NCBI GenBank assembly: GCA_029261675.1
Contig: JAJDBA010000173.1
Span: 1 to 48,151 of the forward strand
DNA from: Nitrospinaceae bacterium
GTDB lineage: Bacteria; Nitrospinota; Nitrospinia; Nitrospinales; VA-1
DNA length: 48,151 nt
Reading direction: 5' to 3'
The translations under genes and the position numbers were made by a program. The notes beneath the pieces were generated by a model. The model was not told the DNA's origin. It did no database searches and worked only from the letters and a program-made list of their open reading frames with translations. Shown one piece after another: positions 12,157 through 38,629 of this stretch (positions are counted from its first letter, which is position 1; each line of letters opens with the position of its first letter).

Positions 12157-12233
12157 TTGCGAACCATTGTAGATTTTTATTTTTTGGTTGGTTAAATCCT
12201 GATGCTATGAACACAGGGGTAAAAAGGAATGAG

Positions 12234-15893: not shown

Positions 15894-15907
15894 AATTTTA
15901 TACTTTC

Positions 15908-17065: not shown

Positions 17066-17220
17066 ATTCCTCAAGTTTTCGCTCTCTCTTAGTGTTTAAA
17101 TAAAAACGCTGTCCTGATAATTGCAGATTAAAAAAAATTAACTAAAAATTTAGAAAGACCTCTATATAATTGAGTAGTGATTTTGCTACGTCAGTCTTAT
17201 TTGAAAAATAATTTCCGGAG

Positions 17221-21680: not shown

Positions 21681-22994
21681 GTGATGACAGGTAAAAAAGA
21701 ACGCGGTCTTTGGGAGCTTTATGCTAAGGATCCAGAAAAGGCGGATGCTGAAATTTGGGAAAGAAAACCCAATCCTTTATCCAGAAGAGGATTTTTAAAG
21801 AAAACGGGACTGGTCACCATGGCTCTGACCCTTGGCTCACAAATCCCTTTCTTTCGTAATATGCCGGGTGGATTTATTCCGCTGGCTCTAGCCGAAACGA
21901 ACGATAAAAAAATCATTGAAGGGAAAGAGGGATTGATTGTCTTAAACGATCGACCCGTCAATGCGGAACCCCCCGCCCATTTATTGGATGACGAATTCAC
22001 CCCCAAGGAAAAACATTTCGTTAGAAATAATGGCCTTCCTCCAGAAGGAAAAATTGATGCTAATCAATGGAAGTTTTCGATCGAGGGAGAAGTCCATAAA
22101 CCTTTTCAGTTAAGCTTGGAAGACCTGAAAAGTAAATTCAAGCATCATACCTATGCGCTACAGATAGAGTGCGGTGGAAATGGAAGGGCAGGGTACAATC
22201 CACCCGCAAAAGGCAACCAATGGAAATTCGGAGCGGTGGGTTGTGCTAAATACAAGGGCGTCCGACTGGGTGATGTATTGAAAGCCGCGGAGCTTAAGGA
22301 CTCTGCTGTATATACTGGCTATTACGGTGCTGATCTTCATCTTTCTGGAAACCCAGATAAAGCATCTATTTCACGCGGGACACCCATTACTAAAGCATTA
22401 GATGACCAGACTCTGATCGTTTGGGAGATGAACGGAGAGCCTCTTCCCGCTTTACACGGTTTCCCATTAAGAATAATAAGTCCTGGCTGGCCTGCCTCAG
22501 CTTCACCAAAATGGTTAAAGAGAATATGGGTTCGAGATCGAATCCACGATGGCATGAAAATGAATAAGTACAGAGTTCCAAAATATCCGGTGAAGCCAGG
22601 CGCATCTGTTCCCATGGAAGATATGGCTATCATCGAATCCATGCCGGTAAAATCTTTAATCACGAATCCGGAAACTGGGATTAAAATCAAACTTGGGAAC
22701 AAGCTTGATATCAGAGGTCATGCGTGGGCGGGTGACCTATCTGTTCAGGCACTTCATGTTTCTATAGACTTTGGGCAAACTTGGCAAAAGGCAGACCTTA
22801 AAGATCCATTGAATCCCTATGCCTGGCAGAATTGGAATGCAACGCTTCAATTTCCTAGTCAAGGTTATTATGAAGTTTGGGCAAGGGCTACCGATAGCGC
22901 GGGAGTTATGCAACCTATGGTTGTCCCAGGATGGAACCCTTCTGGTTATATAAATAACGCAATGCATCGAATCGCAGTTACCGTCAGTCAGTAG
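21681..22994 (+). CDS. Sulfite-oxidase-family molybdopterin oxidoreductase (SorA-like), Tat-exported
   Basis: Twin-arginine leader 'SRRGFLKKTGLVTMAL'. Mo-ligand Cys context 'LQIECGGNGR'; 'GFPLRIISPGW'. C-terminal Ig-like dimerisation region. ATG 21684 after AGAGG is probably the true start. Confidence 0.82.
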   Translation: MMTGKKERGLWELYAKDPEKADAEIWERKPNPLSRRGFLKKTGLVTMALTLGSQIPFFRNMPGGFIPLALAETNDKKIIEGKEGLIVLNDRPVNAEPPAHLLDDEFTPKEKHFVRNNGLPPEGKIDANQWKFSIEGEVHKPFQLSLEDLKSKFKHHTYALQIECGGNGRAGYNPPAKGNQWKFGAVGCAKYKGVRLGDVLKAAELKDSAVYTGYYGADLHLSGNPDKASISRGTPITKALDDQTLIVWEMNGEPLPALHGFPLRIISPGWPASASPKWLKRIWVRDRIHDGMKMNKYRVPKYPVKPGASVPMEDMAIIESMPVKSLITNPETGIKIKLGNKLDIRGHAWAGDLSVQALHVSIDFGQTWQKADLKDPLNPYAWQNWNATLQFPSQGYYEVWARATDSAGVMQPMVVPGWNPSGYINNAMHRIAVTVSQ

Positions 22995-22999
22995 GGGCC

Positions 23000-23383
23000 A
23001 TGGTAAAATTAGAAAGATTAGGGAAATATTGGCTCATCCAGTGCATGGTGGTAATTTTTTTGACATCCAACCTTGAAGCACAAGAGGAGATTGATTATCA
23101 GGGCCTGCCGCCGGGTGAGGGAATTGAGCTTGTGTTAGAGAACTGCACCGTTTGCCATTCGACAGACATCATTCTACAAAATCATATGAGTCGCGAAGCT
23201 TGGGATAAGACGATTACTTGGATGCAAAAAAAACAGGGATTGTGGGAACTGGGTAAAAAGGATCGAAAAACAATATTGGACTATCTTTCAAAAGCACAGG
23301 GAAGGATTATTAATAAAGCGAAACCGAATGGGACAAAAGGCAATCTCATGTACGAATTCGATTACAGGCCAAATCCTTTATAA
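23000..23383 (+). CDS. Monohaem c-type cytochrome (SorB-like electron acceptor)
   Basis: 127 aa. Signal-like N-terminus, single 'CTVCHS' (CXXCH) motif. Starts 5 nt after the SorA-like stop. Confidence 0.75.
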   Translation: MVKLERLGKYWLIQCMVVIFLTSNLEAQEEIDYQGLPPGEGIELVLENCTVCHSTDIILQNHMSREAWDKTITWMQKKQGLWELGKKDRKTILDYLSKAQGRIINKAKPNGTKGNLMYEFDYRPNPL

Positions 23384-23605: not shown

Positions 23606-24979
23606 GTGGTTACTCAAAATAAAATTCTACAAGGCAAAATTTTAATCGTTGATGACGAGCCGAATAACGTTGCCTTACTTGAGCAGACTTTGCAGGGGGT
23701 GGGGTATTCCTCTTTACGAAGCACTATGGATCCGCGCGAGGTCTGTGGTATTTTTGAGGAGTTCAAGCCTGATCTTATTTTGCTGGATATGAATATGCCA
23801 CATATGGACGGCTTCCAGGTCATGCAGAAACTAAAAAAAATTGACCCCAACTCTTCCGCTTCCATTTTAGTTTTGACTGCCCTCCAAGAAAGTGAAACCC
23901 GATGGCGAGCATTGCAAGCCGGAGCCCAGGAGTTTCTGACAAAACCTATTGATCTCGCGGAGGTGATTTGCCGTATTCAAATTATGTTGGAAATAAGGAA
24001 GCTCCGTTTAGAAATTGCCACTACAGAGAAAGAAGAATTTCCGGTTGTAGGGAAGTCGCCAGCTATAGTTCGCCTGAAAGAAGTTATTCATACGCTGGCT
24101 AATTGCAGTGCGGATGTTTTGCTTCTCGGTGAAACAGGTACCGGGAAAGACTTGGTCGCACGGTGTCTGCATGATTTAAGTGATAGGAAAGAAAAGAATT
24201 TTGTCGCTATAAATTGTGGCGCCATACCTGAAACTATTATTGAAAGTGAACTCTTTGGGCATGAAGCAGGTGCTTTTACCGGAGCCAATTCACGCCGTAT
24301 CGGCAAATTTGAATATGCTGACGGAGGCACCGTGTTTCTAGATGAAATAGAAAGCATGCCTATCGACTTACAGGTAAAGCTTCTGCGGGTTATTCAGGAG
24401 CGGACTGTGGAGAGAGTTGGTTCTAATCAGTCCATTCCCATTGATGTACGTATTATTGCTGCCACTAAAGTCGATTTAAAGGAAGCCAGCGACCAAGGAA
24501 AATTTCGTCAAGACCTCTACTACCGGCTGAATGTTGTGCAAATTATTCTTCCACCTCTTCGAGAACGTCAGGAAGACATCTCTCTTTTATTTCAGCATTT
24601 TGTTTTGCAAGCCTGTGCGAGACACAATCTACCGACTCCCATTTTGTCAAAGGGGTTAATGAGCCAGCTGAGCTCAAACAAATGGGAAGGTAATATTCGA
24701 GAGCTAAAAAATGAAGCAGAGAAGCATGTTCTGGGTATGGGGCTTGGACTTTCAGACCTGACTGCTGATTGCCAGGAAGCTCTTTCAAAAGATAAATCTA
24801 ATGAGTCCTCTTTTACACTTACCGAGCAGATGGATGTTTTTGAAAAGAAAATTTTGGAACAGGAACTACTTCGTCACGAGGGTAATATTAAAAACACCCA
24901 TGCCGCACTTGGTATTCCCAGACAAACTCTTGTTGATAAAATGAAAAAACATGGGTTTGATAAGAAGAATTTTCGCTAA
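23606..24979 (+). CDS. Sigma-54-dependent response regulator (NtrC family: REC, AAA+ sigma-54 interaction domain, Fis-type HTH)
   Basis: REC 'ILIVDDEPNN...LILLDMNMPHMDGFQV...VLTAL...FLTKP'. Walker A 'GETGTGKDLVA'; sigma-54 contact loop 'GAFTGA'; Walker B 'VFLDEIE'. C-terminal HTH 'GNIKNTHAALGIPRQTLVDKMKKHG'. Confidence 0.93.
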   Translation: MVTQNKILQGKILIVDDEPNNVALLEQTLQGVGYSSLRSTMDPREVCGIFEEFKPDLILLDMNMPHMDGFQVMQKLKKIDPNSSASILVLTALQESETRWRALQAGAQEFLTKPIDLAEVICRIQIMLEIRKLRLEIATTEKEEFPVVGKSPAIVRLKEVIHTLANCSADVLLLGETGTGKDLVARCLHDLSDRKEKNFVAINCGAIPETIIESELFGHEAGAFTGANSRRIGKFEYADGGTVFLDEIESMPIDLQVKLLRVIQERTVERVGSNQSIPIDVRIIAATKVDLKEASDQGKFRQDLYYRLNVVQIILPPLRERQEDISLLFQHFVLQACARHNLPTPILSKGLMSQLSSNKWEGNIRELKNEAEKHVLGMGLGLSDLTADCQEALSKDKSNESSFTLTEQMDVFEKKILEQELLRHEGNIKNTHAALGIPRQTLVDKMKKHGFDKKNFR

Positions 24980-25062: not shown

Positions 25063-25111
25063 ATAACGGAATTTCGTTATCGTGCTCTATGAATAAACGG
25101 AATATCGGTAA
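25063..25111 (+). promoter_or_regulatory. Pair of imperfect palindromes, candidate enhancer (UAS) for sigma-54 promoter 1
   Basis: ATAACG-gaattt-CGTTAT (25063-25080) and TAAACG-gaatat-CGGTAA (25094-25111), 31 bp apart, about 95-125 bp upstream of the -24 element. The same pair recurs at 30913-30962. Confidence 0.6.
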
Positions 25112-25187
25112 AAGCAATCCTCTCATCTTGCCCTAAATATCCAATAACTATTTGTAAAAATTGGCCTTATGTCTGTCCTGTGTGTTT

Positions 25188-25203
25188 TGGCACATCTATT
25201 GCT
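25188..25203 (+). promoter_or_regulatory. Sigma-54 (-24/-12) promoter 1
   Basis: TGGCAC-atcta-TTGCt matches the consensus TGGCAC-N5-TTGC(A/T). It lies 50 nt upstream of ATG 25253. Confidence 0.8.
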
Positions 25204-25252
25204 CTACATGATTCAGTGATACGAAATTAATACAGACAAAAGGAGGTAAGTC

Positions 25253-25438
25253 ATGATTTATGAAGTTCGAGTTTTAAATTCAAAAGGTGAGATTCAAAAG
25301 ACTTTAAGCACGGATCAATTAACCCAAAGATTTTGGGAAGGGTTTCGTCTGGAAGAAAGCCAAATGGGCTTTAGAGCCGCAAACAATGCAAGTTTTTTCA
25401 GAAATTCAAGAAAAATGAAATCACGAGTCGTATCTTGA
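25253..25438 (+). CDS. Small hypothetical protein (61 aa), first ORF behind sigma-54 promoter 1
   Basis: Strong Shine-Dalgarno AAAGGAGG 6 nt before the ATG. Basic C-terminus. No family recognised. Confidence 0.5.
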   Translation: MIYEVRVLNSKGEIQKTLSTDQLTQRFWEGFRLEESQMGFRAANNASFFRNSRKMKSRVVS

Positions 25439-25454
25439 AATTTTATAAGGATAT

Positions 25455-25497
25455 GAGGGCTATGGAGTATTTAATCCGCTCTATAAGCCCTTTTAAT
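25455..25497 (+). terminator. Possible intrinsic terminator/attenuator between the small ORF and the MCP gene
   Basis: AGGGCTATGGAG ... CTCTATAAGCCCT imperfect stem (about 11 bp, one bulge, one mismatch, 11-nt loop) followed by TTTTAATT. Confidence 0.3.
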
Positions 25498-25548
25498 TAA
25501 GACATTCATATAAAAAAACAAGCTTAACTTAATAGAGGGACATTCATA

Positions 25549-27567
25549 ATGAACGCAATAAATACTCCATCACCAACCTCAAAATCCGGATTTTTCGGAT
25601 TATTTGGAAATGGTCATAATTCAGATACTTTAAAATCTGTCGGGGGGTCATTTTCAAGTCTGAACAAAGTCCAAGCAAATATTTTGGTCGCTGACGCTGA
25701 TTTCAAACTAATCTTTGCTAATGAAAATGCGGTAAAGACTCTTGGGATAATCAAGGAGCAAATTTATGCTGAGTTCGGTGTCTCAATAAATGACATGGTG
25801 GGTGGATCGATTCATCGCTTTCATAAAGACCCGGGTAGGATAGAAAGATTATTACGTAATCCATCAGCTTTGCCGCATACGGCAGAGTTTACTTTTGGTG
25901 ATGTGACTTTGGCAGCGACTATAAATTCGATTACCCATGCCAATGGAGTGGTTTCAGGGTATATCGTTAACTGGGAAGATGTCAGCCAAATCAATTTGAC
26001 AAAACTGGAAATGGAACGCATTCAATCCATGATGGAGAATGCTCCGGTCAATGTGATTTATTGTGATCCGGTAGACTTCAAGATCAACTATATCAACCCG
26101 GCTTCTGTTACAACTCTCAAGACGATCGAACAACACCTTCCCGTTGCTGTTGATAAACTAATGGGGCAATGCATTGATATTTTCCATAAGAACCCGGCAC
26201 ATCAGAGAAAGCTTCTTTCTAATCCTAGTAACCTTCCGCATAGAGCTCAAATTCAAGTAGGCCCCGAAATTCTCGATCTTCTGGTTACCGCTATTTATGA
26301 TAGCAACAAAACCTATCTTGGCCCCATGGTCACTTGGAATGTTATTACTGAAAAGTTGAGAATAGAAAATGATGTGGCGCGAGTCAATTCCATGATGGAA
26401 AACGCGCCAGTGAACGTTATTTTTGCGGACAAGGAAGAATTTAAAATCACCTATGTCAACCCGGCTTCCATTAAAACTCTCAAGACGATCGAAGAACATC
26501 TTCCCGTTGAGGTTGATAAATTAATGGGGCAATGTATTGACATCTTTCATAAGAACCCGGGACATCAGAGAAAGATATTAACCGATCCCAATAACTTACC
26601 GCACAGGGCAGAGATTCAAGTAGGCCCTGAAGTTCTTGATCTTTTGGTCAGTGCTATTTATGACAAAGACAAAAATTACTTGGGACCTATGGTGACATGG
26701 GAGTTGATAACTGAAAAGCTGGCAGCAGAAGAACGTGAGAGGAAGGCGAATGAGGCCGTAAAAACTATTCTGGAAAGTGTTTCAGAAAAAGCTCAAACAC
26801 TTGCCGGTGCCTCAGAGGAGCTGACTGCAACCAGTCAATTGATGGCGGGTAATGCAGAAGAAACATCCGCACAATCGAATGTCGTGTCTTCTGCATCAGA
26901 TCAGGTGAATCAGAATATCCAAACGGTTGCCGCTGGTTCTGAAGAGATGAGTGCCAGCATCAAGGAAATCGCCCAAAATGCCAATCAAGCCACTAAGGTG
27001 ACTGGTGATGCTGTGAAACTAGCCGAGACCACCAATCAGACGGTGACCAAGTTGGGCGCTAGCTCCGCTGAGATCGGTCAGGTAATCAAGGTTATTACTT
27101 CAATCGCAGAACAAACGAATCTTCTGGCGCTCAATGCAACTATTGAGGCGGCTCGAGCTGGTGAGGCGGGGAAGGGGTTTGCGGTGGTGGCGAATGAGGT
27201 TAAGGAACTCGCTAACCAAACGGCTAAAGCGACAGAAGATATCAGCAGTAAGATTCAGGCAATTCAAACGGATACTCAAAGTGCAGTAACCGCGATTGGA
27301 GAGATTGGCACGGTCATAGGCCAAATCAGCGATATCTCTAATACGATTGCCAGTGCTGTTGAAGAACAATCTGCGACTACCAGTGAGATCACCCGAAACG
27401 TTTCGGAAGCATCCAGAGGGTCTCAGGAGATTGCTGAAAATATCTCCGGGGTTGCTCAGGCAGCGCATAGCACAACTGAGGGAGCCAATGATACTCAAGT
27501 TGCTGCGAGCGAATTGTCCAAACTTGCAGCCGAGATGCAGAGCCTTGTTGATCAAGATAAACGTTAA
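25549..27567 (+). CDS. Soluble methyl-accepting chemotaxis protein with three tandem PAS units (Aer2-like, putatively haem-binding); no transmembrane or HAMP segment visible
   Basis: Signalling hairpin '[35 protein letters not shown]'. Three PAS units each carry 'FHK[DN]P' (His92, His213, His334) and a later 'V[NT]W'. No hydrophobic helix anywhere in the protein. Confidence 0.88.
26017..26742 (+). repeat. Tandem in-frame duplication (2 x 363 bp) encoding PAS units 2 and 3 of the MCP
   Basis: '[11 protein letters not shown]..' recurs exactly 363 nt (121 codons) later: TCC ATG ATG at 26026 and at 26389. The two units are roughly 80% identical in DNA by eye. An older, more diverged copy lies at about 25650-26016. 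Confidence 0.85.
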
Positions 27568-27657
27568 ACCTATTCCTCGAAGGGATCCGGCTTATGCCGG
27601 AGCCTTTAACGAGATTTTCCGACCATCAATACAGAAGTAATTTGGAGATAATCCATC

Positions 27658-30270
27658 ATGGGTGACAGTGAAATGATTCAAGAGTTTGTGGCCGAATGCC
27701 GTGAGAATCTGGATCAATTTGATAAAGATTTGATCCGTCTTGAAAATGAGTCGAATTCCTCTGGTTTGATGGAAAGTATTTTTCGAACCATACATACAAT
27801 CAAGGGAAGTTGCGGATTGATTGGTTTTGTTAAACTCGAATCAATTACTCATGCTGGTGAAAATCTTCTTGGAAAAATCCAGCAAGATAAGGTGACTCCC
27901 TCTAGAGAAGTAATAGGTGTCTTGCAGAAACTTGCAGATTCAGTTCGCAGGATATGTACATGCATTTTAAACCAAGGAAATGAAGGGGATCAGGATTTTT
28001 CAGAATTGATTGTGAGCCTGGAACGTTTGCAGTCAGATGAGAACGAAAAAACCTCTTCAAATAATGGAAATGGTGCAAAGGCCGCATCTCTTTTTGAGAG
28101 AATCGGAGGTCAGGAGGCAATTGATGCGACCGTCAATGTTTTCTACACCAAAGTTCTCAATGATAGCCGAATCAATCATTTTTTTGAAAATACAGATTTG
28201 AATCATTTGTTTAATAAGCAAAAGGAATTCCTGACTCTCGCATTTGGGGGATCCAGTAACTATGATGGAAAAGGATTACGGGAAGTGCACAAGCATCTGG
28301 TGGAAAAGGGGCTCAACGAAAGCCATTTTGAGGCCGTCATCGAAAACCTTGGTGCGACTTTAAAGGAACTAAAAGTTCCAGATGAGTTGATCGAAGAAGC
28401 TGCCGGTGTAGCTCTTTCTGTAAAAAATGATGTTCTTAATCAAGCTCCCTCAGCGCCACCAAAAAAAGATGAGGTTCAAATAAATGAAGCAGTAGACATC
28501 TTGCCCGAAAATGGAAAACCAATTCCAGCTAATGAAAATGTTAAAAAGACCGCGACTACTGGAAAGAAAGAAGAACGTAAGCTGGAAGACTCGAGCATTC
28601 GTGTCGATGTGCAATTGTTGGATAAACTGATGAACCTGGTTGGAGAGTTGGTTTTAGCTAGAAATCAGATCATGCAGCTCAACGATACTCATCAAGACCC
28701 TACTTTCATGGAAACCTCTCAACATTTGAATTTAGTGACCTCTGATCTTCAGGAGGGAGTAATGAAAACCCGGATGCAGCCTATAGGCGGTATATGGGGT
28801 AAGTTTCCCAGAATTGTTCGCGATTTGTCGATGGAATGCGGCAAGAAAATTCGTCTTGAAACAGAAGGTAAAGAAACCGAGTTGGACAAAACTTTGATAG
28901 AGGCAATCAAAGATCCCTTGACGCATATCATTCGCAATTCAGTAGACCATGGAATAGAAAAACCTGATATTCGGATAGATCAAGGTAAACCTGAAGAAGG
29001 AACTTTAAATTTAAAAGCCTATCACGAGGGTGGGCAGGTCATTATTGAAATCACGGATGATGGTGGTGGAATCGATTCGTCAATTCTCAAGGAAAAGGCG
29101 TTGAGTAAAGGTCTAATCACAAATGAGCAGGCCTTGAAAATGAATGATCGAGAATCCGTTAATCTTATTTTCTTACCGGGACTTTCTACGGCCAAAAAAG
29201 TTACTAATGTATCGGGTCGTGGTGTCGGAATGGATGTTGTAAAAACCAATATAGAAAAAATTGGCGGAACTGTTGATATTAATACAACTAAGGGAGAAGG
29301 CACAACTCTGAAGGTCAAGATTCCTTTAACATTGGCAATCATTCCAGCCCTGATCGTTTCAACAGGCGCAAATCAGTATGCAATACCTCAGGTAAACCTG
29401 CTGGAGTTGGTTAGACTGGAAAAAGAACAATCTGAAAATAGCATCGAGTTGATTCAAGGAACCCCGGTATATCGTTTGCGAGGAAACCTTTTACCTATTG
29501 TTAGTTTGCACGATGAGCTTGGTGTTGCAAAAAATGATACAGATCAAACCGCAACTAATATTGTTGTTTTAAACGCGAATGGCAAGCAGTTTGGTCTGGT
29601 GGTTGAGGAAATTTGTGACTCAGAGGAAATCGTGGTGAAACCTCTTGGAAGTCAGTTGAAGGGAATCTCTGCCTTTTCGGGAGCAACGATCATGGGAGAC
29701 GGGAGGATAGCATTGATCCTCGACATAATGGGTCTTGCTCAAAAAGCACAAGTAATTCGTGAAAATCAGGAGACGAGTACGAAAGAAACGAGTGGCACAG
29801 ACCTTGAAAGCAGCCATGCTTCAAACAAAGAAACCTTGTTGATATTCAGAGTTGGAAAAGAAGGGCGAAGCTCTATTCCACTTTCTGCGGTGGCACGCTT
29901 AGAGGAATTTAAGAGTTCAGATATTGAGCGTTCAGGAAAGAATAAGGTCATTCAATATCGAGGCGAAATTATACCTCTTATTTGTCTTGAAGAGTTTTTC
30001 GATTCTTTCAAAGAGATAGAGCAAAAGGAAGCAATTCAGGCTGTTATTTTTACCCAGAAAAATAAAAGTGTGGCTCTTGTAGTCGATAAAATTCTTGATA
30101 TTGTCGAAGAAAACATTTTGGTAAAACGCACGTTCTCTCGGGCGGGAATTTTGGGAACAGTGGTTGTTCAAGATAAAGTTACGGACTTGATAGATATGGA
30201 AGGTGTTGTTCGAAAAATGGACCCCACATTTTTTGAAGATTGTGAAGAGGTTTTGAGTTTGAATCATTAG
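27658..30270 (+). CDS. cheA: CheA histidine kinase with a truncated-haemoglobin domain in place of P2 and two CheW-like domains (Hpt, trHb, dimerisation, HATPase_c, CheW-like x2)
   Basis: P1 'FRTIHTIKGS' (His46); globin 'LFERIGGQEAIDATVNVFYTKVL...' at aa 144-261; P3 'IRVDVQLLDKLMNLVGELVLARNQ'. P4 'DPLTHIIRNSVDHGIE', 'DDGGGID', 'GRGVGMDVVKTNIE'. P5 'NQYAIPQVNLLELVRL...'; second CheW-like 'ETLLIFRVGKEGRSSIPLSAVARLEEF...'. Confidence 0.92.
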   Translation: MGDSEMIQEFVAECRENLDQFDKDLIRLENESNSSGLMESIFRTIHTIKGSCGLIGFVKLESITHAGENLLGKIQQDKVTPSREVIGVLQKLADSVRRICTCILNQGNEGDQDFSELIVSLERLQSDENEKTSSNNGNGAKAASLFERIGGQEAIDATVNVFYTKVLNDSRINHFFENTDLNHLFNKQKEFLTLAFGGSSNYDGKGLREVHKHLVEKGLNESHFEAVIENLGATLKELKVPDELIEEAAGVALSVKNDVLNQAPSAPPKKDEVQINEAVDILPENGKPIPANENVKKTATTGKKEERKLEDSSIRVDVQLLDKLMNLVGELVLARNQIMQLNDTHQDPTFMETSQHLNLVTSDLQEGVMKTRMQPIGGIWGKFPRIVRDLSMECGKKIRLETEGKETELDKTLIEAIKDPLTHIIRNSVDHGIEKPDIRIDQGKPEEGTLNLKAYHEGGQVIIEITDDGGGIDSSILKEKALSKGLITNEQALKMNDRESVNLIFLPGLSTAKKVTNVSGRGVGMDVVKTNIEKIGGTVDINTTKGEGTTLKVKIPLTLAIIPALIVSTGANQYAIPQVNLLELVRLEKEQSENSIELIQGTPVYRLRGNLLPIVSLHDELGVAKNDTDQTATNIVVLNANGKQFGLVVEEICDSEEIVVKPLGSQLKGISAFSGATIMGDGRIALILDIMGLAQKAQVIRENQETSTKETSGTDLESSHASNKETLLIFRVGKEGRSSIPLSAVARLEEFKSSDIERSGKNKVIQYRGEIIPLICLEEFFDSFKEIEQKEAIQAVIFTQKNKSVALVVDKILDIVEENILVKRTFSRAGILGTVVVQDKVTDLIDMEGVVRKMDPTFFEDCEEVLSLNH
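28087..28440 (+). other. Truncated haemoglobin (group I/trHbN-like, 2-on-2 globin) domain embedded in CheA
   Basis: Aligns without gaps, from 'IGG' to the proximal His, with my recollection of Mycobacterium tuberculosis HbN. Tyr-B10 (TAC 28144-28146), Gln-E11 (CAA 28219-28221) and His-F8 (CAC 28288-28290, 'REVHKH') are conserved. Confidence 0.8.
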
Positions 30271-30305
30271 AAGAATTTATTTGGAAATAACCTTAGGGAA
30301 AAATT

Positions 30306-30734
30306 ATGAGTGATGAAAAACAGTTTTGCACATTTTATCTTGGGGATAGGTTCTTTGGTGTAGAGGTGGAGCGAGTGCAGGAAGTTTTTAGATACCAAGA
30401 AATGACACAAGTTCCACTGGCGCCTTCTGTCGTGCGAGGATTGATCAATCTCAGGGGACAGATCATTACAGCCATTGATTTGAGACGTAGGCTTGGCATG
30501 AAGGAGATTTCCGAGGACCAAAACCCCATGAATATTGTCGTCAGAACCGATGATGATGTGGTGAGTCTGCTGGTGGACCGAATCGGGGATGTTTTGGAAG
30601 TAGGTGACGAAGTTCTGGAGCCCCCGCCTGAAACACTAGATGAAATAGCGCGAAAATTGATTCCAGGAGTTTATAAGCTCAACGGCTCTCTGCTGTTAAC
30701 TCTAGATACAGAAAAAACATTGGATTTTTCCTAA
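30306..30734 (+). CDS. cheW: CheW coupling protein
   Basis: 142 aa. 'FCTFYLGDRFFGVEVERVQEV', 'VRGLINLRGQIITAIDLRRRLG', 'LVDRIGDVLEV'. Confidence 0.9.
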   Translation: MSDEKQFCTFYLGDRFFGVEVERVQEVFRYQEMTQVPLAPSVVRGLINLRGQIITAIDLRRRLGMKEISEDQNPMNIVVRTDDDVVSLLVDRIGDVLEVGDEVLEPPPETLDEIARKLIPGVYKLNGSLLLTLDTEKTLDFS

Positions 30735-30912
30735 ATTAGACAAACTATTTTTAAGCATTTTTAAATTCAATCGTTATAAAACCTCATTGGATATTTACTA
30801 ATAAAATGGGTGTTTAATTTAAGTAGGTAGTACCTTCCTGACACCATTTTTATTCAATCTGCTCTCCCTTCCAAAGTTATTTATTCGCAAAGAACAAAGC
30901 TTATCAACTCTG

Positions 30913-30962
30913 ATAACGAAAAATCGTTATTCTTCCTATTTCAAAAAACGAATTTCCGGTAA
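30913..30962 (+). promoter_or_regulatory. Pair of imperfect palindromes, candidate enhancer (UAS) for sigma-54 promoter 2
   Basis: ATAACG-aaaaat-CGTTAT (30913-30930) and AAAACG-aatttc-CGGTAA (30945-30962), 32 bp apart, about 90-120 bp upstream of the -24 element. Same half-sites and geometry as 25063-25111. Confidence 0.6.
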
Positions 30963-31034
30963 AGAACCATCCAATTTTGGATCTTCAATATTGCAAGTGA
31001 TTGAAAAATAATGCTTATTTTTGTTTGTGAATTT

Positions 31035-31050
31035 TGGCAGGCATATTGCT
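31035..31050 (+). promoter_or_regulatory. Sigma-54 (-24/-12) promoter 2
   Basis: TGGCAG-gcata-TTGCt. It lies inside the TTG-initiated extension of the ORF-track entry 31021..32625 and 55 nt upstream of ATG 31105. Confidence 0.75.
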
Positions 31051-31104: not shown

Positions 31105-32625
31105 ATGAATGCAATATCGTATCAAAAAGAAACACAAACTGTGCTTCGTCTATTGATGGTTGAAGAATCGACGGAAGATGCTTTATTGCTGGCCTGTGCG
31201 CTTCGAGATGGGGGTTACCAGCCTCAATGCGAAAGAGTAGAAACAGAAGATGCGATGATTTTAGCCTTGAAAAAACAAGAGTGGGATTTGGTGATTTCGG
31301 ATTCTAGGACGACTCTATTTGATGGGTTGGAAGCTATATCAACCCTAAAAAGTCATGGAGCGAATATTCCCATCATTATCGTTTCAAGCTCTGTTGATAT
31401 GTTTTCTAAGGAGAAATTGATTAAAGCCGGTGCAAGTGAATTTGTTTTAAAAGATAAACTATCAAGTCTTATTCCTATCCTAGAAAAAATACTCCCCAAG
31501 ACGAAAGAAAACCCCAAGGCAGACCTAAAACCCAAGCAAATAGATTCAAAACCGAATGACCTAAGCGAAACTAGCGATGTAGAGCTTCTGAATGCGAAAA
31601 TTTTAATTGTGGACGATGAACCTAAAAATGTTGAAGTTATCAAACAGGTTATGGAGATGGCAGGGTATGAAAATATTCGTTTCACCTGTGACCCGAGAGA
31701 AGTTTGCGATATTTATAAAATTTTCTGGCCCGACCTGGTTTTGTTGGATTTGAACATGCCTCATATGAATGGATTTCAGGTTATGGAAGAACTTAAAAAA
31801 GTGGAGCAAAGAGACTATCTTCCGGTATTAGTTCTGACTGCTCAAACCGATAGAGAGTCTCGTTTGAAAGCCCTGCGGGCGGGGGCCAAGGATTTTTTAC
31901 TGAAACCTTTTGATCTTGTTGAGGTGATACATCGGATACAAAATATACTGGAAGTTCGACTGATCCAAAATAAGCTTAGACATCAGAATTTTAATCTTGA
32001 AGAAAAAGTTCAGGAGCGTACGAAGGAGTTATATAAAACTCAACTATCCGTAGTCCAACGGTTGGGGCGCGCAGCGGAGTATCGCGATAATGAGACCGGT
32101 AATCACGTTCTACGAATGAGTAAGGTTGCTGCTTTACTGGCAAAACATATGGGTTTTGACGAAAAACAATGCGACCTGATTCTGAATGCTGCACCCATGC
32201 ACGATGTAGGGAAAATTGGCATCCCAGACGGGATTCTACTGAAACCGGGAAAACATGATTTAGAGGAATGGGGCGTCATGAGAACCCATGCTGAAATTGG
32301 CTATCATATTCTCGCTGATGATCCATCGGAATTAATGCAGTTGGCCGCCAAGATTGCCTTGGAACACCATGAAAAGTGGGATGGGTCGGGGTATCCCAAA
32401 GGGTTAAAGGGAGAGGAAATTTCTATCGAGGCAAGGATTACTACGGTAAGCGATGTGTTTGATGCGTTGACCTCCGAAAGACCCTACAAAAGAGCATGGC
32501 CAGTTGAGGATGCTATCAAATATATTGAAGATCAAAAAGGAATCTCTTTCGATCCTCAAATTGTGGAAAAGTTCAAAAATGTTGTGCCAGATATTATTCG
32601 TATTAAAGATCAATTTGTCGATTAG
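31105..32625 (+). CDS. Dual-receiver HD-GYP response regulator (REC, REC, HD-GYP; RpfG-type putative c-di-GMP phosphodiesterase)
   Basis: Start moved to ATG 31105 (GGAG 9 nt upstream), because the upstream extension contains the sigma-54 promoter. REC1 'LLMVEES...LVISD...IIIVSSS'. REC2 'ILIVDDEPKN...LLDLNMPHMNGFQV...VLTAQ...FLLKP'. HD 'APMHDVGKIG'; 'HHEKWDGSGYP'. Confidence 0.9.
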   Translation: MNAISYQKETQTVLRLLMVEESTEDALLLACALRDGGYQPQCERVETEDAMILALKKQEWDLVISDSRTTLFDGLEAISTLKSHGANIPIIIVSSSVDMFSKEKLIKAGASEFVLKDKLSSLIPILEKILPKTKENPKADLKPKQIDSKPNDLSETSDVELLNAKILIVDDEPKNVEVIKQVMEMAGYENIRFTCDPREVCDIYKIFWPDLVLLDLNMPHMNGFQVMEELKKVEQRDYLPVLVLTAQTDRESRLKALRAGAKDFLLKPFDLVEVIHRIQNILEVRLIQNKLRHQNFNLEEKVQERTKELYKTQLSVVQRLGRAAEYRDNETGNHVLRMSKVAALLAKHMGFDEKQCDLILNAAPMHDVGKIGIPDGILLKPGKHDLEEWGVMRTHAEIGYHILADDPSELMQLAAKIALEHHEKWDGSGYPKGLKGEEISIEARITTVSDVFDALTSERPYKRAWPVEDAIKYIEDQKGISFDPQIVEKFKNVVPDIIRIKDQFVD

Positions 32626-32654
32626 ATAGAAATATAATAAAAACCTCGCAAGAT

Positions 32655-33884
32655 ATGCGGAAGGTAATTAATATGCATGATCCATTAAAACTTTTATTGA
32701 TTGATGATGATGCCATAGATCGGAAAATGTTTAAAAAGTATTTAAAGGCATTTCCTGAGGATGGTTTTTCGATTTTAGAATTTGAAACTGGGGAAGCGGG
32801 CCTGGAATACTGTAGTCGGCAAAAACCAGATTGCATGTTGCTTGATTATAGTTTGCCCGACCTGAATGGCTTGGAATTTCTTTCTCAACTGGAAAACACT
32901 TCCTTTCCCATTCTTATGTTGACGGGACAAGGTGATGAAACGATTGCTGTTGAGGCAATGAAATTGGGGGTGCAGGACTATCTTGTGAAAGATAACATTA
33001 CCCCTACCTATTTAATGAGCGCAATTAATAATGCCATTAAAATCAGTAAATCTGAGAAGCAACGGAAACACGCAGAAGAAGCGCTTATTCTAGCCAATGA
33101 TAGATTAGAAAATCGTGTTAAGGAGCGAACTTCTCGTTTAGAAGAGACTAACAAGAAATTGGTGGCCGCTAAAGAATTGGCAGAATCAGCAAATAGTGCC
33201 AAAAGTATTTTTCTTTCCAAAATGAGTCATGAATTACGTACTCCTATACATGCCATTTTAGGATTCACACAACTTTTACAAATGGATACAAAAAATCCTC
33301 TAGCCGACTACCAACAAGAAAATATGGAAAGCGTTTATTCGGCGGGTAACCATCTCTTAGACCTGATCAATGAAGTGCTCGATCTTTCGAAGATTGAAAC
33401 GGGAAACTTTCAATTGTCTATCGATAGGGTAGATATTATTCCCATTGTGGATAACGTGATATCTATTTCTCAATCACTTGCGAATGAAAAAGGTATATCC
33501 TTGAAGTATGAGGAAATTCCGCGTGAAAGTTGTTTTGTTGAAATAGATGCTATGCGATTCAAGCAAGCTGTCTTGAACCTGATTTCAAATGCAATCAAAT
33601 ACAACAAGCCCACTGGCTCTGTGCTTATTTCTTTTAAAAGGCAAGAGATTGGTAGGTTACGTATTGGAGTGCAAGATACTGGCTACGGAATTTCCGAAGA
33701 TAAGCAGGATAAAATATTTCAACCCTTTGAGCGCTTAGGTGAGGAAACAGGAACAATTGAAGGGGCAGGTATTGGGCTTACGATATCAAAACAATTTATA
33801 GAAGCAATGGGTGGAACGATCGGCTTTGAAAGTGTTTACCAAGAGGGCAGCCTTTTTTATATTGATGTTCCTGTTTCCGAATAA
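32655..33884 (+). CDS. REC-histidine kinase fusion (kinase array member 1)
   Basis: REC 'LLLIDDDAID...MLLDYSLPDLNGLEFL...ILMLTGQGD...DYLVKD'. H-box '[26 protein letters not shown]'; N-box '[14 protein letters not shown]'; G-boxes 'DTGYGI' and '[12 protein letters not shown]'. ATG 32673 after GGAAGG is an alternative start. Confidence 0.9.
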   Translation: MRKVINMHDPLKLLLIDDDAIDRKMFKKYLKAFPEDGFSILEFETGEAGLEYCSRQKPDCMLLDYSLPDLNGLEFLSQLENTSFPILMLTGQGDETIAVEAMKLGVQDYLVKDNITPTYLMSAINNAIKISKSEKQRKHAEEALILANDRLENRVKERTSRLEETNKKLVAAKELAESANSAKSIFLSKMSHELRTPIHAILGFTQLLQMDTKNPLADYQQENMESVYSAGNHLLDLINEVLDLSKIETGNFQLSIDRVDIIPIVDNVISISQSLANEKGISLKYEEIPRESCFVEIDAMRFKQAVLNLISNAIKYNKPTGSVLISFKRQEIGRLRIGVQDTGYGISEDKQDKIFQPFERLGEETGTIEGAGIGLTISKQFIEAMGGTIGFESVYQEGSLFYIDVPVSE

Positions 33885-33926
33885 AAACTATAAAATGCCT
33901 TAGTTTGTCTACAGAATTTATATTGA

Positions 33927-36572
33927 ATGTACCTTTTTATGTTTGATACCGCTTTCACAGGAAATGAGGTAACGGGCTCTTATAACCTGTGGCTTGTTTT
34001 TTTCTCTTACGTAGTTGCTTCTTTCGCTTCTTTTACGGCTTTTGACTTAGCTATTCGAATCAAAGAAAGCCATGGAACTACCCGAAATGTCTGGATTGGT
34101 GGATGCGCCTTAACTATGGGCGGAGGAATCTGGTCTATGCATTTTACCGCCATGCTAGCCTTAAAGATTCCCCTATCCATCACCTATGACTTAGGGACTA
34201 CCCTTTTCTCATTTATTATTGCTGTCGCTGTTTCTGGTATTGGGTTTTTCCAAGTTTACTCCGGGAAAACCGTTTTAATCGCCAATATCATCAAGGGTGG
34301 AGTGCTGATGGGATGCGGGGTGATAGGGATGCATTATACCGGAATGGCAGCAATGGAGTTATCTGGGACGATGCATTACAAGCCCGGTTTGTTTATTCTT
34401 TCATCGTTGATTGCAATTTTAGCCGCTATTGTTGCAATGGGTTTGACCACTCATTTCGGCAATAAAGAAGGAGCTAGGTTTTCACTAAAAGTTATTGCTT
34501 CATTGGTAATGGGTATGGCTGTTTTTGGTATGCATTATACCGGAATGGCTGCAACCGTTTTTACTGTTCCACAAAATTTTATTCCTCCCTTACAGATTAC
34601 TTCAGATTTCGACATGCTGGCATTCGGAATTTCTCTAGTAACACTTTTTATAATGGGTATGGCATTGCTCGTCTCCATAACGCAAAGAGAGATTCAAAGG
34701 CTTGTGGAAGCAAAGTCACAACTTGAAAACCGAATCAGTGCGTTACCAAAATTTCCTGAGAAAAACCCGTTTCCCGTTCTCCAAATAGACAAATCTGGAG
34801 TCATCGTTTATGTCAATTTCGCAGCGGAGAAAGCGTTGGCTAATTGGAATTGTAAGCTGTTAGATACGATTCCTGATGTTTTCAAAAATACTATTAAAGA
34901 CACGTTTGATTTTCAGGAGTCGAATCCTTTGGAAATTGACATTGGTCAACAAAAATATGTTTTTGATGCGGTTTACAATAAAGACCAAGACAGGGTCAAC
35001 ATGTATGGAAATTATAGTTTAGATTCAAAATCAACGAGTCAGGCTTTACACATAGAGCGTCAGAACTTTTTCGATATGTTAGATAACCTGCCCATTTGTT
35101 TTCATTTGCAGGCACCAGATTATTCTGTCCCTTACGCTAATAAAATGTTCCGTGAACGGTTTGGTGATCCTGAGGACAGAAAATGTTTTGATTTGATGTA
35201 TAGAAGAGACGAGCCTTGTGAAGTTTGTTCCCCTTTCAAAGTATTTGATAATAAGGAAAAACAGGCCAGTGTTTGGAGCTCAATGGATGGATATACCTAT
35301 TTGACGGTATGCACCCCTTTTAAGGGGTCGGATGGAAAAGATTTGGTGATGGAAATGGCTATGGATATTACCGATCAGGAAAATGCCAAGAAGGAAGCCC
35401 TCAGTGCAAAAGAAGAAGCTGAAATGGCTAACTATTCCAAATCCGAATTTTTGGCGAGAATGAGTCACGAATTACGCACTCCTATGAACGCTATCCTGGG
35501 TTTCACACAGCTTTTGCAGATAGATCAAAGGAATCCTTTAGCCGAATACCAAAAGGAAAACATGGAGAGGGTATCTTCAGCAGGGAAGCATCTTTTGAAT
35601 CTCATCAATGAAGTGCTCGATCTTTCTACAGTTGAATCTGGGAAATTGGATTTAACAATAGAAACGCTGGATATAGTTCCTATTGTTGATAATGTATTTT
35701 CTATTTCACAGGCACTTGCTAATGAGAAAAATATATCTCTAAAGTATGCAGGGCTTCCGCAAGAGGGTTATTTTGTTGATATAGATGCTCTGAGGTTCAA
35801 GCAAGCTGTCTTGAACCTGATCTCCAATGCAATCAAATACAATAAACCTAATGGTTCTGTAATTATTTCCTATGAAAAACTGAAGAATGGCAAAGTCCGG
35901 TTAGGAGTCCAGGATACGGGACATGGTATTGCCCAAGATAAGATAGATAAGCTCTTCCAACCCTTTGAGCGTTTTGATGTGGATGTAGAACAAATTGAGG
36001 GCACTGGCATTGGACTGACTATTTCCAAAAAACTCATTGAATCTATGGGCGGAATTATAGGCTTTGAAAGTGTGATAGGGGAGGGCAGTTTTTTTTATAT
36101 TGACGTTCCAGTTTCAGATAAAAAACCTGCGTCTCTGGAGATTGAAATACCCGCAGATTCAATCTCTGCCTCCGTAGAAACAAACCTTAAAAAAACGGTT
36201 CTCTATATAGAAGATATTCCAGCCAATATAGTCTTGGTGAAGCAAATTTTGACGAGCAGATCTCATATAGAATTGTTATCGGCACCCAATGCTTTAGATG
36301 GCATCAAAATAGCCGAGACCCACATCCCTGATTTGATTTTAATGGATATTCATTTGCCAGGGATGGATGGCCTTACAGCTTTTAAAAAGCTTCAAGCTCT
36401 CAATGTAACTAAAGACATTCCGATTATTGCTTTGACAGCAGATGCGATGGATGGAGATATAAAAAGAGCTCTGGATATGGGATTCCATTCCTATACTACC
36501 AAGCCCATTGATGTGTCCAAATTTTTGAAGGTAATAGATGGTGTGTTAAATCAACAAGCAAAACTTATTTAA
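33927..36572 (+). CDS. MHYT-domain hybrid histidine kinase (MHYT membrane sensor, two PAS-like regions, HisKA, HATPase_c, REC; array member 2)
   Basis: Three MHYT-type helices: 'WSMHFTAMLAL', 'IGMHYTGMAAM', 'FGMHYTGMAAT'. Cys-rich PAS-like region 'CFDLMYRRDEPCEVCS'. H-box '[26 protein letters not shown]'. C-terminal REC '[11 protein letters not shown]...[13 protein letters not shown]...IIALTADAM...YTTKP'. Confidence 0.9.
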   Translation: MYLFMFDTAFTGNEVTGSYNLWLVFFSYVVASFASFTAFDLAIRIKESHGTTRNVWIGGCALTMGGGIWSMHFTAMLALKIPLSITYDLGTTLFSFIIAVAVSGIGFFQVYSGKTVLIANIIKGGVLMGCGVIGMHYTGMAAMELSGTMHYKPGLFILSSLIAILAAIVAMGLTTHFGNKEGARFSLKVIASLVMGMAVFGMHYTGMAATVFTVPQNFIPPLQITSDFDMLAFGISLVTLFIMGMALLVSITQREIQRLVEAKSQLENRISALPKFPEKNPFPVLQIDKSGVIVYVNFAAEKALANWNCKLLDTIPDVFKNTIKDTFDFQESNPLEIDIGQQKYVFDAVYNKDQDRVNMYGNYSLDSKSTSQALHIERQNFFDMLDNLPICFHLQAPDYSVPYANKMFRERFGDPEDRKCFDLMYRRDEPCEVCSPFKVFDNKEKQASVWSSMDGYTYLTVCTPFKGSDGKDLVMEMAMDITDQENAKKEALSAKEEAEMANYSKSEFLARMSHELRTPMNAILGFTQLLQIDQRNPLAEYQKENMERVSSAGKHLLNLINEVLDLSTVESGKLDLTIETLDIVPIVDNVFSISQALANEKNISLKYAGLPQEGYFVDIDALRFKQAVLNLISNAIKYNKPNGSVIISYEKLKNGKVRLGVQDTGHGIAQDKIDKLFQPFERFDVDVEQIEGTGIGLTISKKLIESMGGIIGFESVIGEGSFFYIDVPVSDKKPASLEIEIPADSISASVETNLKKTVLYIEDIPANIVLVKQILTSRSHIELLSAPNALDGIKIAETHIPDLILMDIHLPGMDGLTAFKKLQALNVTKDIPIIALTADAMDGDIKRALDMGFHSYTTKPIDVSKFLKVIDGVLNQQAKLI
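36276..36485 (+). repeat. Near-identical 210-bp receiver-module repeat, copy 1
   Basis: Hand alignment: 7 mismatches/210 nt against 41599-41808 and 14/210 against 38339-38548, with no indels. Encodes '[70 protein letters not shown]'. Confidence 0.9.
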
Positions 36573-36661
36573 GCGCATGTCGCATAAATCTTGTTGTACT
36601 CGAAATGGTCATCTGAGTGTGATTTTTTTTTTAGAGGCTCAAACTTTACTGAAGTTTTGTT

Positions 36662-38629
36662 ATGCATAGATTGCTGAAGCGGCAAATAAAAAAACATTTA
36701 AGCTCTTGTGATTTGAATTCTTCATCCATTCAAAATTTTATTAATTCAGTGGATGAAACTTACCAGGAAATGGATTCAGACCATGAATTGCTGGCGCATG
36801 CGATGGATTTGGGTTCAAAAGAACTTACCGAAAAAAACCAATCCCTTTTAAATGAAGTTCTTGAAAAGAAAAAAGTTCTGAAAGAAATGGGGCAGGCAGA
36901 GTCATTGTTGAATATTCAAAAAGATGCACTTGGTAGACTTGCAAAAGGATATTCGCTTAAGGAAATATTGGATGTTTTGGCAAAAGGTTTTGAAGAAGTA
37001 TTTATTGGCGCAAAATGCTCGATTCTTTTGTTCAATAAAGAAAAGCAACGTCTCTATAATTGTTCTTCGCCTAGTTTGCCTGAGGAGTATCTTAATTATA
37101 TAAATGGTACAAAAATTGGTCCCTCTATGGGGTCATGTGGGACCGCTGTTTATGAAGGAGAAATAGTTATTGTTGAAAGTATTGCAACAGACCCTTTATG
37201 GGCTGTGGCTAGAGATGTTGCCCTATCATACGGGTTGCTATCGTGTTGGTCTTGCCCTGTTTGGGGGGGTGGGAATCAGGTTTTGGGAACCTTTGCGGTT
37301 TACTATAGCTCTACAAAAATACCAAAACAGGAGGAGTTAGAGGTAATTAAGTCTATGGCGTATTTGGTTGGTGTTGCCATAGAGAATATAGAAAATGAAA
37401 AGAAAGTTCTGGAAAACCAATTGGAATTGGAAGACAGAGTTGAAAAGAGAACTGAGGAGTTGATGCAAGCTAAAGAAGAAGCCGAAAAAGCCAGTCAGAT
37501 TAAATCCGAATTTCTGGCAAAAATGAGCCATGAGTTACGTACGCCTATGAACGCTATTCTTGGGTTTACTCAATTATTGCAAATGGATCATAAAAACCCC
37601 TTAGCCGATTACCAAAATAAAAATATGGAAAGAGTATCGTCAGCGGGTCACCATCTGTTGATGCTTATCAATGAGATTCTTGATCTTTCGAAAATTGAAT
37701 CTGGGGAAATAGGTTTGGCAATAGAAACGGTGGATATGATTCCTATTGTGGATAACGTAATTTCTATTTCCCAATCACTTGCGAATGAAAAAAACATCTC
37801 TCTAAGATATGAAAAAAATCTATGTGAGAATTGTTTTGTTGCGGTCGACCCGCTTCGATTTAAACAGGTTGTTCTGAACTTAATATCCAATGCGATCAAA
37901 TACAACAAACCCAATGGATCTGTTGTAGTTTCTTTTAAAAGTCAGGAAAGTGGAACAATGCGGTTGAGAATTCAAGATACGGGGCATGGGATTGCTGAAG
38001 ATAAGATAGATAAACTCTTCAAACCCTTTGAGCGTTTTGATGTAGATGCAGAGCAAATTGAAGGTGCCGGTATTGGGTTGACTATATCTAAACAGCTAAT
38101 AGAAATGATGCATGGAACGATTGGGTTTGATAGCAAGTTGGGAGAAGGCAGCCTTTTTTATATAGACGTGCCAATTTCAAATAAAGCACCTAGGCCACTG
38201 GAGATTGAAATACCTTCGGACTCATTTCCTGACTCTTCGACCCAAAAGATGGTTAAAAAGGTTCTATATGTTGAAGATATTCCTGCAAACGTGGAGTTGG
38301 TGAGGCAAATATTTATATGTAGGCCTTATATAAAATTATTATCGGCACCTAATGCTTTAGATGGCATCAAAATAGCCGAGACCCACATCCCTGATCTGAT
38401 TTTAATGGATATTCATTTGCCAGAGATGGATGGTCTTACAGCTTTTAAAAAGCTTCAAACTCTCAATGAGACTAAAGACATTCCGGTTATCGCTTTGACA
38501 GCAGATGCTATGGATGGCGATATAAAAAAGGCTCTCGATATGGGATTCCATTCCTACATTACCAAGCCCATCGATGTGTCTAAGTTTTTGGAAACAGTAG
38601 ATAAAGTTTTAGAACCGGATACTTTATGA
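36662..38629 (+). CDS. GAF-domain hybrid histidine kinase (GAF, HisKA, HATPase_c, REC; array member 3)
   Basis: GAF '[22 protein letters not shown]...[24 protein letters not shown]...[22 protein letters not shown]'. H-box '[26 protein letters not shown]'. REC '[14 protein letters not shown]...[13 protein letters not shown]'. Confidence 0.9.
38339..38548 (+). repeat. Near-identical 210-bp receiver-module repeat, copy 2
   Basis: 14 mismatches/210 nt against copy 1, counted by hand. In frame within the REC domain of kinase 36662..38629. Confidence 0.9.

Follow-up and report, generated by a model that had tools for sequence, protein, structure and literature searches.

Two predicted σ54 promoters with a shared two-site enhancer accompany an NtrC-family activator gene in a Nitrospinaceae bacterium

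NtrC (NRI) acts at the glnAp2 promoter of Escherichia coli and Salmonella. At E. coli glnAp2, the NtrC sites are centred near positions −140 and −108. We have analysed a comparable arrangement in 48,151 nt of DNA from a Nitrospinaceae bacterium (contig JAJDBA010000173.1 of assembly GCA_029261675.1). This whole stretch is referred to as the window. Two intergenic regions of the window, named P1 and P2, each contain a pair of dyads upstream of a match to the −24/−12 element of σ54 promoters. A gene encoding an NtrC-family enhancer-binding protein (23606–24979, forward strand) is located immediately upstream of P1. Judging from the DNA of the window and its relatives, P1 and P2 are probably σ54 promoters that form one small local regulon.

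The likeness to NtrC at glnAp2 is apparent at several levels. Both proteins belong to the class of activators that combine a receiver (REC) domain, an AAA+ domain and a Fis-type helix-turn-helix (HTH). In both systems, two dyads separated by about three helical turns are found far upstream of a TGGCAC-N5-TTGC promoter. With the second G of this element set as −24, the inferred dyad centres are about −140 to −145 and −108 to −113, and so similar to those at glnAp2. The second site is the weaker one in each case, which suggests cooperative oligomerisation. Conversely, the sites themselves differ, reading TAACG-N6-CGTTA here and TGCACC-N5-GGTGCA for NtrC. The targets here are signalling genes, not genes for nitrogen assimilation, and the activator scores 376 bits against the 558.6-bit cut-off of the NCBIfam ntrC model. 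Furthermore, an IHF-like element is present at the Nitrospinaceae promoters, whereas glnAp2 needs no IHF.

Other described systems share some of these features. DctD, another NtrC-family response regulator, likewise acts from tandem upstream sites on a σ54 promoter, that of dctA in Rhizobium. However, no dctA or dctB gene is found nearby in the window, and none of the targets has to do with C4-dicarboxylate transport. ZraR of E. coli serves two σ54 promoters, those of zraP and zraSR, and so combines a small accessory protein with two-component feedback. In the Zra system a single enhancer serves two divergent promoters, whereas P1 and P2 are co-directional, 5.8 kb apart and have a pair of sites each. 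In addition, the small protein encoded downstream of P1 does not resemble ZraP and lacks a signal peptide, and the activator scores 335 bits where the ZraR model requires 760. The closest solved structures are those of NtrC1 and NtrC4 from Aquifex aeolicus (4l4u and 1ny5), which likewise consist of REC, AAA+ and DNA-binding domains. These are relatives at the family level only; their targets and DNA sites are unrelated.

The architecture of P1 and P2 is textbook, and the new element is the recognition motif, wTAACG-N6-CGTTAw, of an unnamed σ54 activator. Our search of the literature for σ54 regulation or rpoN in Nitrospina or Nitrospinae found no paper. To our knowledge, almost nothing is known about gene regulation in the uncultured marine nitrite-oxidising Nitrospinota. 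For such organisms the analysis supplies a defined motif and a two-promoter local regulon. It would also connect σ54 control with a chemosensory pathway, the breakdown of c-di-GMP and several sensor kinases of gas- or redox-type, and it singles out a conserved small protein as the primary target. Because the architecture is textbook, the work is of value as an annotation that is clean and open to testing, and as a point of entry; it reveals no new principle.

The elements of P1 are arranged as follows. Upstream activator site 1 (ATAACGgaatttCGTTAT, 25063–25080) is a perfect dyad, ATAACG-N6-CGTTAT, centred at approximately −143. Site 2 (TAAACGgaatatCGGTAA, 25094–25111) is an imperfect dyad, TAAACG-N6-CGGTAA, centred at approximately −112 and 31 bp from site 1. 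An IHF-like element, TAACTATTTGTAA (compare YAANNNNTTGATW), is located at a fixed offset near −65 (25145–25157, forward strand). The −24/−12 element, TGGCAC-N5-TTGCT (TGGCACatctaTTGCT, 25188–25203, forward strand), has no mismatches to the σ54 consensus. Its TGGCA begins 94 bp after the start of site 2, and the element ends 49 bp ahead of an ATG at 25253.

At P2, site 1 (ATAACGaaaaatCGTTAT, 30913–30930) has the same half-sites, ATAACG-N6-CGTTAT, and is centred at approximately −140. Site 2 (AAAACGaatttcCGGTAA, 30945–30962) reads AAAACG-N6-CGGTAA; it is centred at approximately −108 and lies 32 bp from site 1. The IHF-like element, CAAGTGATTGAAA, occupies positions 30994–31006 of the forward strand, near −63. 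The −24/−12 element, TGGCAG-N5-TTGCT (TGGCAGgcataTTGCT, 31035–31050, forward strand), has one mismatch to the consensus. Here, the starts of site 2 and of TGGCA are 90 bp apart, and the element ends 54 bp ahead of the ATG at 31105. Both −24/−12 elements are intergenic, on the coding strand, and separated by a short leader from a gene with a GGAG-type ribosome-binding site.

We compared the frequency of each motif with expectation. Expected counts were derived from dinucleotide shuffles of the 48-kb window, and only exact matches were counted. The palindrome ATAACG-N6-CGTTAT occurs twice (0.00 expected), as does AAACG-N6-CGGTAA (0.00 expected), and TGGCAS-N5-TTGCT also occurs twice (0.05 expected). 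For the σ54 test pattern, the GG and GC doublets of TGGCAC-N5-TTGCW were required to be exactly 10 bp apart. The two best matches to the consensus in the window are those at 25188–25203 and 31035–31050. The initial annotation had listed the palindromes, second sites and promoter elements; on re-reading, all of its strings and coordinates were exact. The distances that it gave, 31–32 bp between sites and 90–94 bp from there to the −24 element, agree with our values. Its observation, made by eye, that the palindrome occurs nowhere else in the 48 kb also holds; allowing up to two mismatches revealed no further copy in the window.

Related loci provide a further comparison. We assembled 13 promoters, comprising the two in the window and those of ten related contigs, of which 8 are of the P1 type and 5 of the P2 type. 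Loci L022, L023, L024/L025, L026, L027 and L028 were traced from activator orthologues, which are 73–94% identical in these six loci. Scanning metagenomes for the compound pattern added loci L031–L034. The P2 set consists of the loci in which a gene encoding a REC-REC-HD-GYP protein is present with its own upstream region, namely the window, L024, L026, L027 and L032.

All 13 promoters have in common TAACG-N6-CGTTA, a second ACG-N6-CG site and TGGCA-N6-TTGC, with variation at single bases in L028 and in P2 of L024. The GG and A of TGGCA, and TTGC, are found at fixed spacing throughout. Similarly, the sites are always 31–32 bp apart, and the centre of site 2 is always 84–89 bp from the GG. Each promoter thus has two dyads that share a face of the helix and lie 80 bp or more ahead of −24. 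The IHF-like sequence YAAnnnnTTGwAA is found at approximately −64 in 11 of the 13 cases.

The order of elements at P1 does not change between loci. In every locus the series starts 80–90 bp past the activator stop codon with [A/G/T]TAACGG-N5-CGT[T/A]A, followed 31–32 bp on by the ACG-N6-CG dyad and then by an element reading TAACTATTTG[T/A]AA. Next come TTGGCAC-N5-TTGCTCTA, a ribosome-binding site and, in all loci, an open reading frame (ORF) of 57–61 amino acids. In the alignment of the 8 P1 loci, the invariant positions of site 1 are TAACGG..CGT.A and those of site 2 are ACG-N6-CG. Within the IHF-like element, A25146, the TTG at 25152–25154 and A25157 are invariant. Both GGCA and ATTGCT are invariant in the −24/−12 element; the leading T is G in L028 (GGGCA). 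In total, 22 of 25 motif positions are invariant in this alignment compared with 23 of 186 other positions (Fisher p = 1.7e-14). At P2, TGG.A-N6-TTGCT is conserved across the five loci, with TGGTA in P2 of L024. Site 1 of P2 is kept in L024, L026, L027 and L032, and the dyad spacers of these loci differ from those of the window. More generally, the six central bases of the dyads change between genomes (for example, gaattt, ggtttt, ccactc and atatcc), whereas the half-sites are constant.

Gene context is consistent with this pattern. P1 accompanies the activator gene in two or more distinct genomic settings. P2 is always ahead of the REC-REC-HD-GYP gene and then a gene for a REC-histidine kinase. 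Where the REC-REC-HD-GYP gene has its own upstream region (5 loci), both dyads and TGG[C/T]A-N6-TTGC always precede it. Taken together, the conservation argues strongly that these are functional σ54 promoters with conserved activator sites. Phylogenetic footprinting of the 13 promoters supports the proposal, made in the initial annotation, of two σ54 promoters with a common two-site enhancer that the adjacent NtrC-type protein probably serves. The elements named there stand; the conserved 61-amino-acid ORF directly behind P1 and the IHF-like element had been overlooked.

The activator encoded at 23606–24979, called an NtrC-type protein from the outset, is identified as such by Pfam (Response_reg, Sigma54_activat, AAA_lid_14 and HTH_8). 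The receiver (PF00072, 96 bits) contains D16, D17, D61 and K113, with D61 as the phospho-acceptor aspartate. In the AAA+ domain (PF00158, 240 bits), the translation contains GETGTGKD (Walker A), LDEIE and GAFTGA. The C-terminus is a Fis-type HTH (PF02954, HTH_8, 31 bits) with the recognition helix GIPRQTLVDKMKK. Hence, the receiver aspartate, Walker A and B motifs, GAFTGA loop and Fis-type HTH of an NtrC-type response regulator are all present. Among the large ORFs of the window, no other protein combines REC, Sigma54_activat and HTH_8. The best sequence matches in the PDB, 4l4u (E = 5.5e-78) and 1ny5, cover the REC, AAA+ and DNA-binding domains.

The activator falls below the curated cut-off of every named activator in NCBIfam. 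In addition to the ntrC and ZraR values given above, it scores 377 bits for AtoC (cut-off 714) and 336 bits for GlrR (cut-off 763). Because the score is below all of these equivalog cut-offs, we assign the protein to no named orthologue. JGI records label orthologues ‘DctD’; this name, a KEGG-style best hit, is not backed by gene context and is no evidence of function. Judged by the homologues of the activator, the window belongs to uncultured Nitrospinota. The closest named ones are from ‘Nitrospinae bacterium’, and those of Nitrospina watsonii and Ca. Nitronauta come next, at approximately 50% identity. The window has a GC content of about 40%, and Rfam and tRNA scans of it gave no match. 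The rpoN gene is not inside the 48 kb; the intact GAFTGA activator, and the abundance of such activators in Nitrospinota, argue only indirectly for its presence in the genome.

Is the adjacent activator the protein that binds the dyads? We consider this likely. Throughout the clade that bears the motif the recognition helix does not vary, but it differs in outgroup homologues of 50–53% identity. Both outgroup loci examined, L029 (N. watsonii) and L030 (activator 50–53% identical), lack TAACG dyads. The N. watsonii locus has a CCGGAA-rich upstream region instead, and its own TGGCAT-N5-TTGCT. The motif is therefore specific to the clade of the window. An alternative is that P1 and P2 depend on σ54 but that the dyads are bound by some other protein, such as a different enhancer-binding protein, a repressor or an anti-activator, with the adjacent activator working elsewhere. 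A search with the activator revealed that Nitrospinota encode many paralogous NtrC-type regulators. Moreover, L023 retains the activator, P1 and the small ORF and is missing the HD-GYP and kinase genes, so the partners of the circuit are not fixed. However, although the surroundings have been rearranged, the dyads and P1 remain 80–90 bp past the activator stop codon in all loci. Their positions, around −140 and −110, and their same-face spacing are typical of activator rather than operator sites, and conservation of the motif coincides exactly with an unvarying HTH helix. On balance, binding by another protein is unlikely.

Two further explanations question the promoters themselves. The −24/−12 matches might be unused, with unrecognised promoters of σ70 or another type driving transcription and the dyads serving an ordinary transcription factor. 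The promoter rules of Nitrospinota are not established, and our σ70 scan is a crude consensus tool. Against this, that scan called no site in either intergenic region, and TTGGCA and ATTGCT are invariant or nearly so at fixed spacing in 13 promoters while neighbouring bases drift. The −24/−12 elements of P1 and P2 are also the two best σ54 matches in 48 kb, and a complete σ54 activator gene is adjacent. This explanation is thus very improbable. Alternatively, the likeness of P1 and P2 might be a mere relic of segmental duplication without regulatory meaning, since the two regions share scattered identity beyond the named motifs. Yet the motif positions are kept across genomes where spacers and flanks have diverged, and P2 of L024 and of L027 resembles P1 little outside the functional elements. 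Neutral relics are not expected to be invariant at 73% protein identity. We therefore give the relic explanation almost no credence.

Some observations nevertheless weigh against our interpretation of P1 and P2 as σ54 promoters served by the adjacent activator. Assignment of the dyads to that activator derives from linkage and geometry only. The identity of P1 and P2 outside the motifs means that part of their likeness could reflect an old duplication. The IHF-like element, which lies between enhancer and promoter, matches just 7–8 of 9 positions of the IHF consensus WATCAANNNNTTR (reverse). Its pattern is not enriched in the window as a whole (5 found, 5.8 expected), and it is absent from two of the five P2 promoters. 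Only its constant position and its conservation suggest a role. Finally, a hairpin followed by UUUUAAUU, a short U-run, is found after the small ORF (25456–25491, forward strand) and may be a weak terminator or attenuator. This structure is not consistently conserved in other loci and was not called by our consensus terminator scan. It might terminate P1 transcripts ahead of the chemotaxis genes.

The regulon recognisable from these motifs is small. Among 241 million metagenome records, the compound pattern was found only at promoters of the P1 and P2 types. Hence, the recognisable regulon consists of just these two units. Consistent with this, a half-site regular expression revealed no further members in the window or in the seven related loci L022–L028.

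Direct observations comprise the elements with their conservation and geometry, as well as the linkage to the activator gene and the domains found in its product. From them we infer a scheme for the binder, the phosphodonor, DNA bending, read-through and the signal. A kinase would phosphorylate the regulator at D61. Regulator dimers would then bind the two wTAACG-N6-CGTTAw dyads through the C-terminal Fis-type HTH. Being three helical turns apart, at approximately −142 and −110, the dyads would nucleate an AAA+ oligomer. The conserved A/T-rich, IHF-like element near −64 might bend the DNA or permit looping. The GAFTGA loops could thereby touch the σ54 holoenzyme, in a closed complex at TGGCA-N6-TTGC, and ATP hydrolysis would open the promoter. 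The output of P1 would be the protein of 57–61 amino acids and, by read-through, the chemosensory genes, which here encode a PAS chemoreceptor, a globin-CheA and CheW. P2 would yield the REC-REC-HD-GYP c-di-GMP phosphodiesterase together with the set of histidine kinases. The globin, PAS and MHYT sensors encoded point to O2, nitric oxide (NO) or redox as possible signals.

The gene directly behind P1 is the 61-amino-acid ORF (25253–25438, forward strand) and not the chemoreceptor gene. It is the invariant first gene of the unit, and in all related loci it encodes 57–61 amino acids. Its ribosome-binding site (aaggagg) and ATG are conserved across loci, and the variable columns number 26, 20 and 45 of 53 at the three codon positions. 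For these reasons we take the ORF to be coding. The protein has no match in Pfam or NCBIfam. A profile search identified a wider family of proteins of 47–80 amino acids, together with one match of 148 amino acids, none of them annotated; this leaves out a match of 841 amino acids that covers only 17 profile positions. Family members share the N-terminal motif MFYEVRVLNxxGxxKKVxSxxxLSxxYW. An AlphaFold model (pLDDT 76) consists of a β-hairpin and a long helix, and a Foldseek comparison of this model with the PDB gave no significant fold match. A distant member of the family (L035) follows a REC-LuxR regulator and has no clear σ54 promoter.

Downstream of the small ORF, on the forward strand, are genes for a soluble chemoreceptor with PAS repeats (25549–27567), a CheA with an embedded truncated haemoglobin (27658–30270) and CheW (30306–30734), all identified by Pfam. 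This block (25549–30734) is a variable cargo, being present, partial or absent in orthologous loci. The globin part of CheA (residues 144–258) is a group-I truncated haemoglobin domain (PF01152) situated between the Hpt and dimerisation domains. Nearly all of its homologues are stand-alone proteins of approximately 120 amino acids. Fusions were otherwise seen only in the orthologous CheA of L026, in a CheA from contig P0004 and in a partial protein named ‘Hpt domain-containing protein [Nitrospina gracilis]’ (P0189). When CheA was the query of a genome scan, the matches were limited to stand-alone truncated haemoglobins and one archaeal CheA, with no orthologous loci. We found nothing relevant in the literature on CheA-globin fusions. 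The architecture looks rare, and the protein is a possible O2- or NO-sensing CheA.

The predicted P2 operon (31105–41886) consists of five genes on the forward strand with gaps of no more than 90 bp. According to Pfam, these encode the REC-REC-HD-GYP phosphodiesterase (31105–32625), the REC-histidine kinase (32655–33884) and three hybrid kinases with the domain orders MHYT-PAS-HK-REC (33927–36572), GAF-HK-REC (36662–38629) and dCache-PAS-GAF-HK-REC (38626–41886), where HK denotes histidine kinase. The pairing of the HD-GYP and REC-kinase genes behind P2 is conserved in related loci. The three consecutive hybrid kinases (33927–41886) share identical strings near their C-terminal ends, with TGGCATCAAAATAGC at 36299 and 38362, and CAAACGTGGAGTTGGTGA at 38286 and 41546. 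These strings suggest recent tandem duplication of a kinase-receiver module, with sensor domains (MHYT, GAF, dCache-PAS-GAF) that differ.

The activator and the HD-GYP protein have closely related receivers. The activator receiver (23606–24000) and the second receiver of the HD-GYP protein (31580–31960) are 56% identical over 126 amino acids. The corresponding identity is 49–55% in five clade loci compared, against 31% in N. watsonii. Such close paralogy suggests that the two proteins share one phosphodonor. The REC-kinase encoded behind the HD-GYP gene in every case may be this donor. If so, P2 would be the arm of a positive feedback loop. We also considered identification of the cognate kinase by orthology. 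The REC-kinase encoded beside the N. watsonii activator is just 24% identical to that of the window, and this assignment is unsupported.

A more speculative proposal concerns the circuit as a whole. Its invariant output would be the protein of 57–61 amino acids, from an undescribed family, rather than the products of the chemotaxis or c-di-GMP genes. Together with the activator, the globin-CheA and the REC-REC-HD-GYP protein, this could constitute a new O2- or NO-responsive behavioural switch in uncultured Nitrospinota that are nitrite oxidisers of low-oxygen seawater. One phosphodonor would then feed both transcription and c-di-GMP turnover through the paralogous receivers. We regard this proposal as rather doubtful in its entirety.

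Related loci differ in their organisation. In L022, a deletion (11826–12625) has removed the chemoreceptor gene, most of CheA, P2 and the first HD-GYP receiver, leaving an Hpt remnant of 37 amino acids. The CheW, HD-GYP and kinase genes are now located behind P1. Such a fusion would be tolerable if P1 and P2 are equivalent or co-regulated. In the window, genes for a sulfite-oxidase-like molybdoenzyme and a cytochrome c (21681–23383) are found just upstream of the activator. Their L022 counterparts (15511–17219) are downstream of the kinase genes. Hence, the locus has been rearranged between close relatives. In L024, a strong hairpin resembling an intrinsic terminator, cagaggggctccg...cggagcccctcttttttt (13940–13985), separates the chemoreceptor gene from P2. 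This fits with P2 being an independent unit in L024. A consensus scan of the window found no terminator-like counterpart after CheW. Elsewhere in the window, an AddA/UvrD-type helicase-nuclease is split between two ORFs on the minus strand (6140–7810 and 8072–9508) that are separated by a 260-bp gap. The equivalent in L022 is one ORF of 1122 amino acids, and the split may be due to a pseudogene, an insertion or an assembly error.

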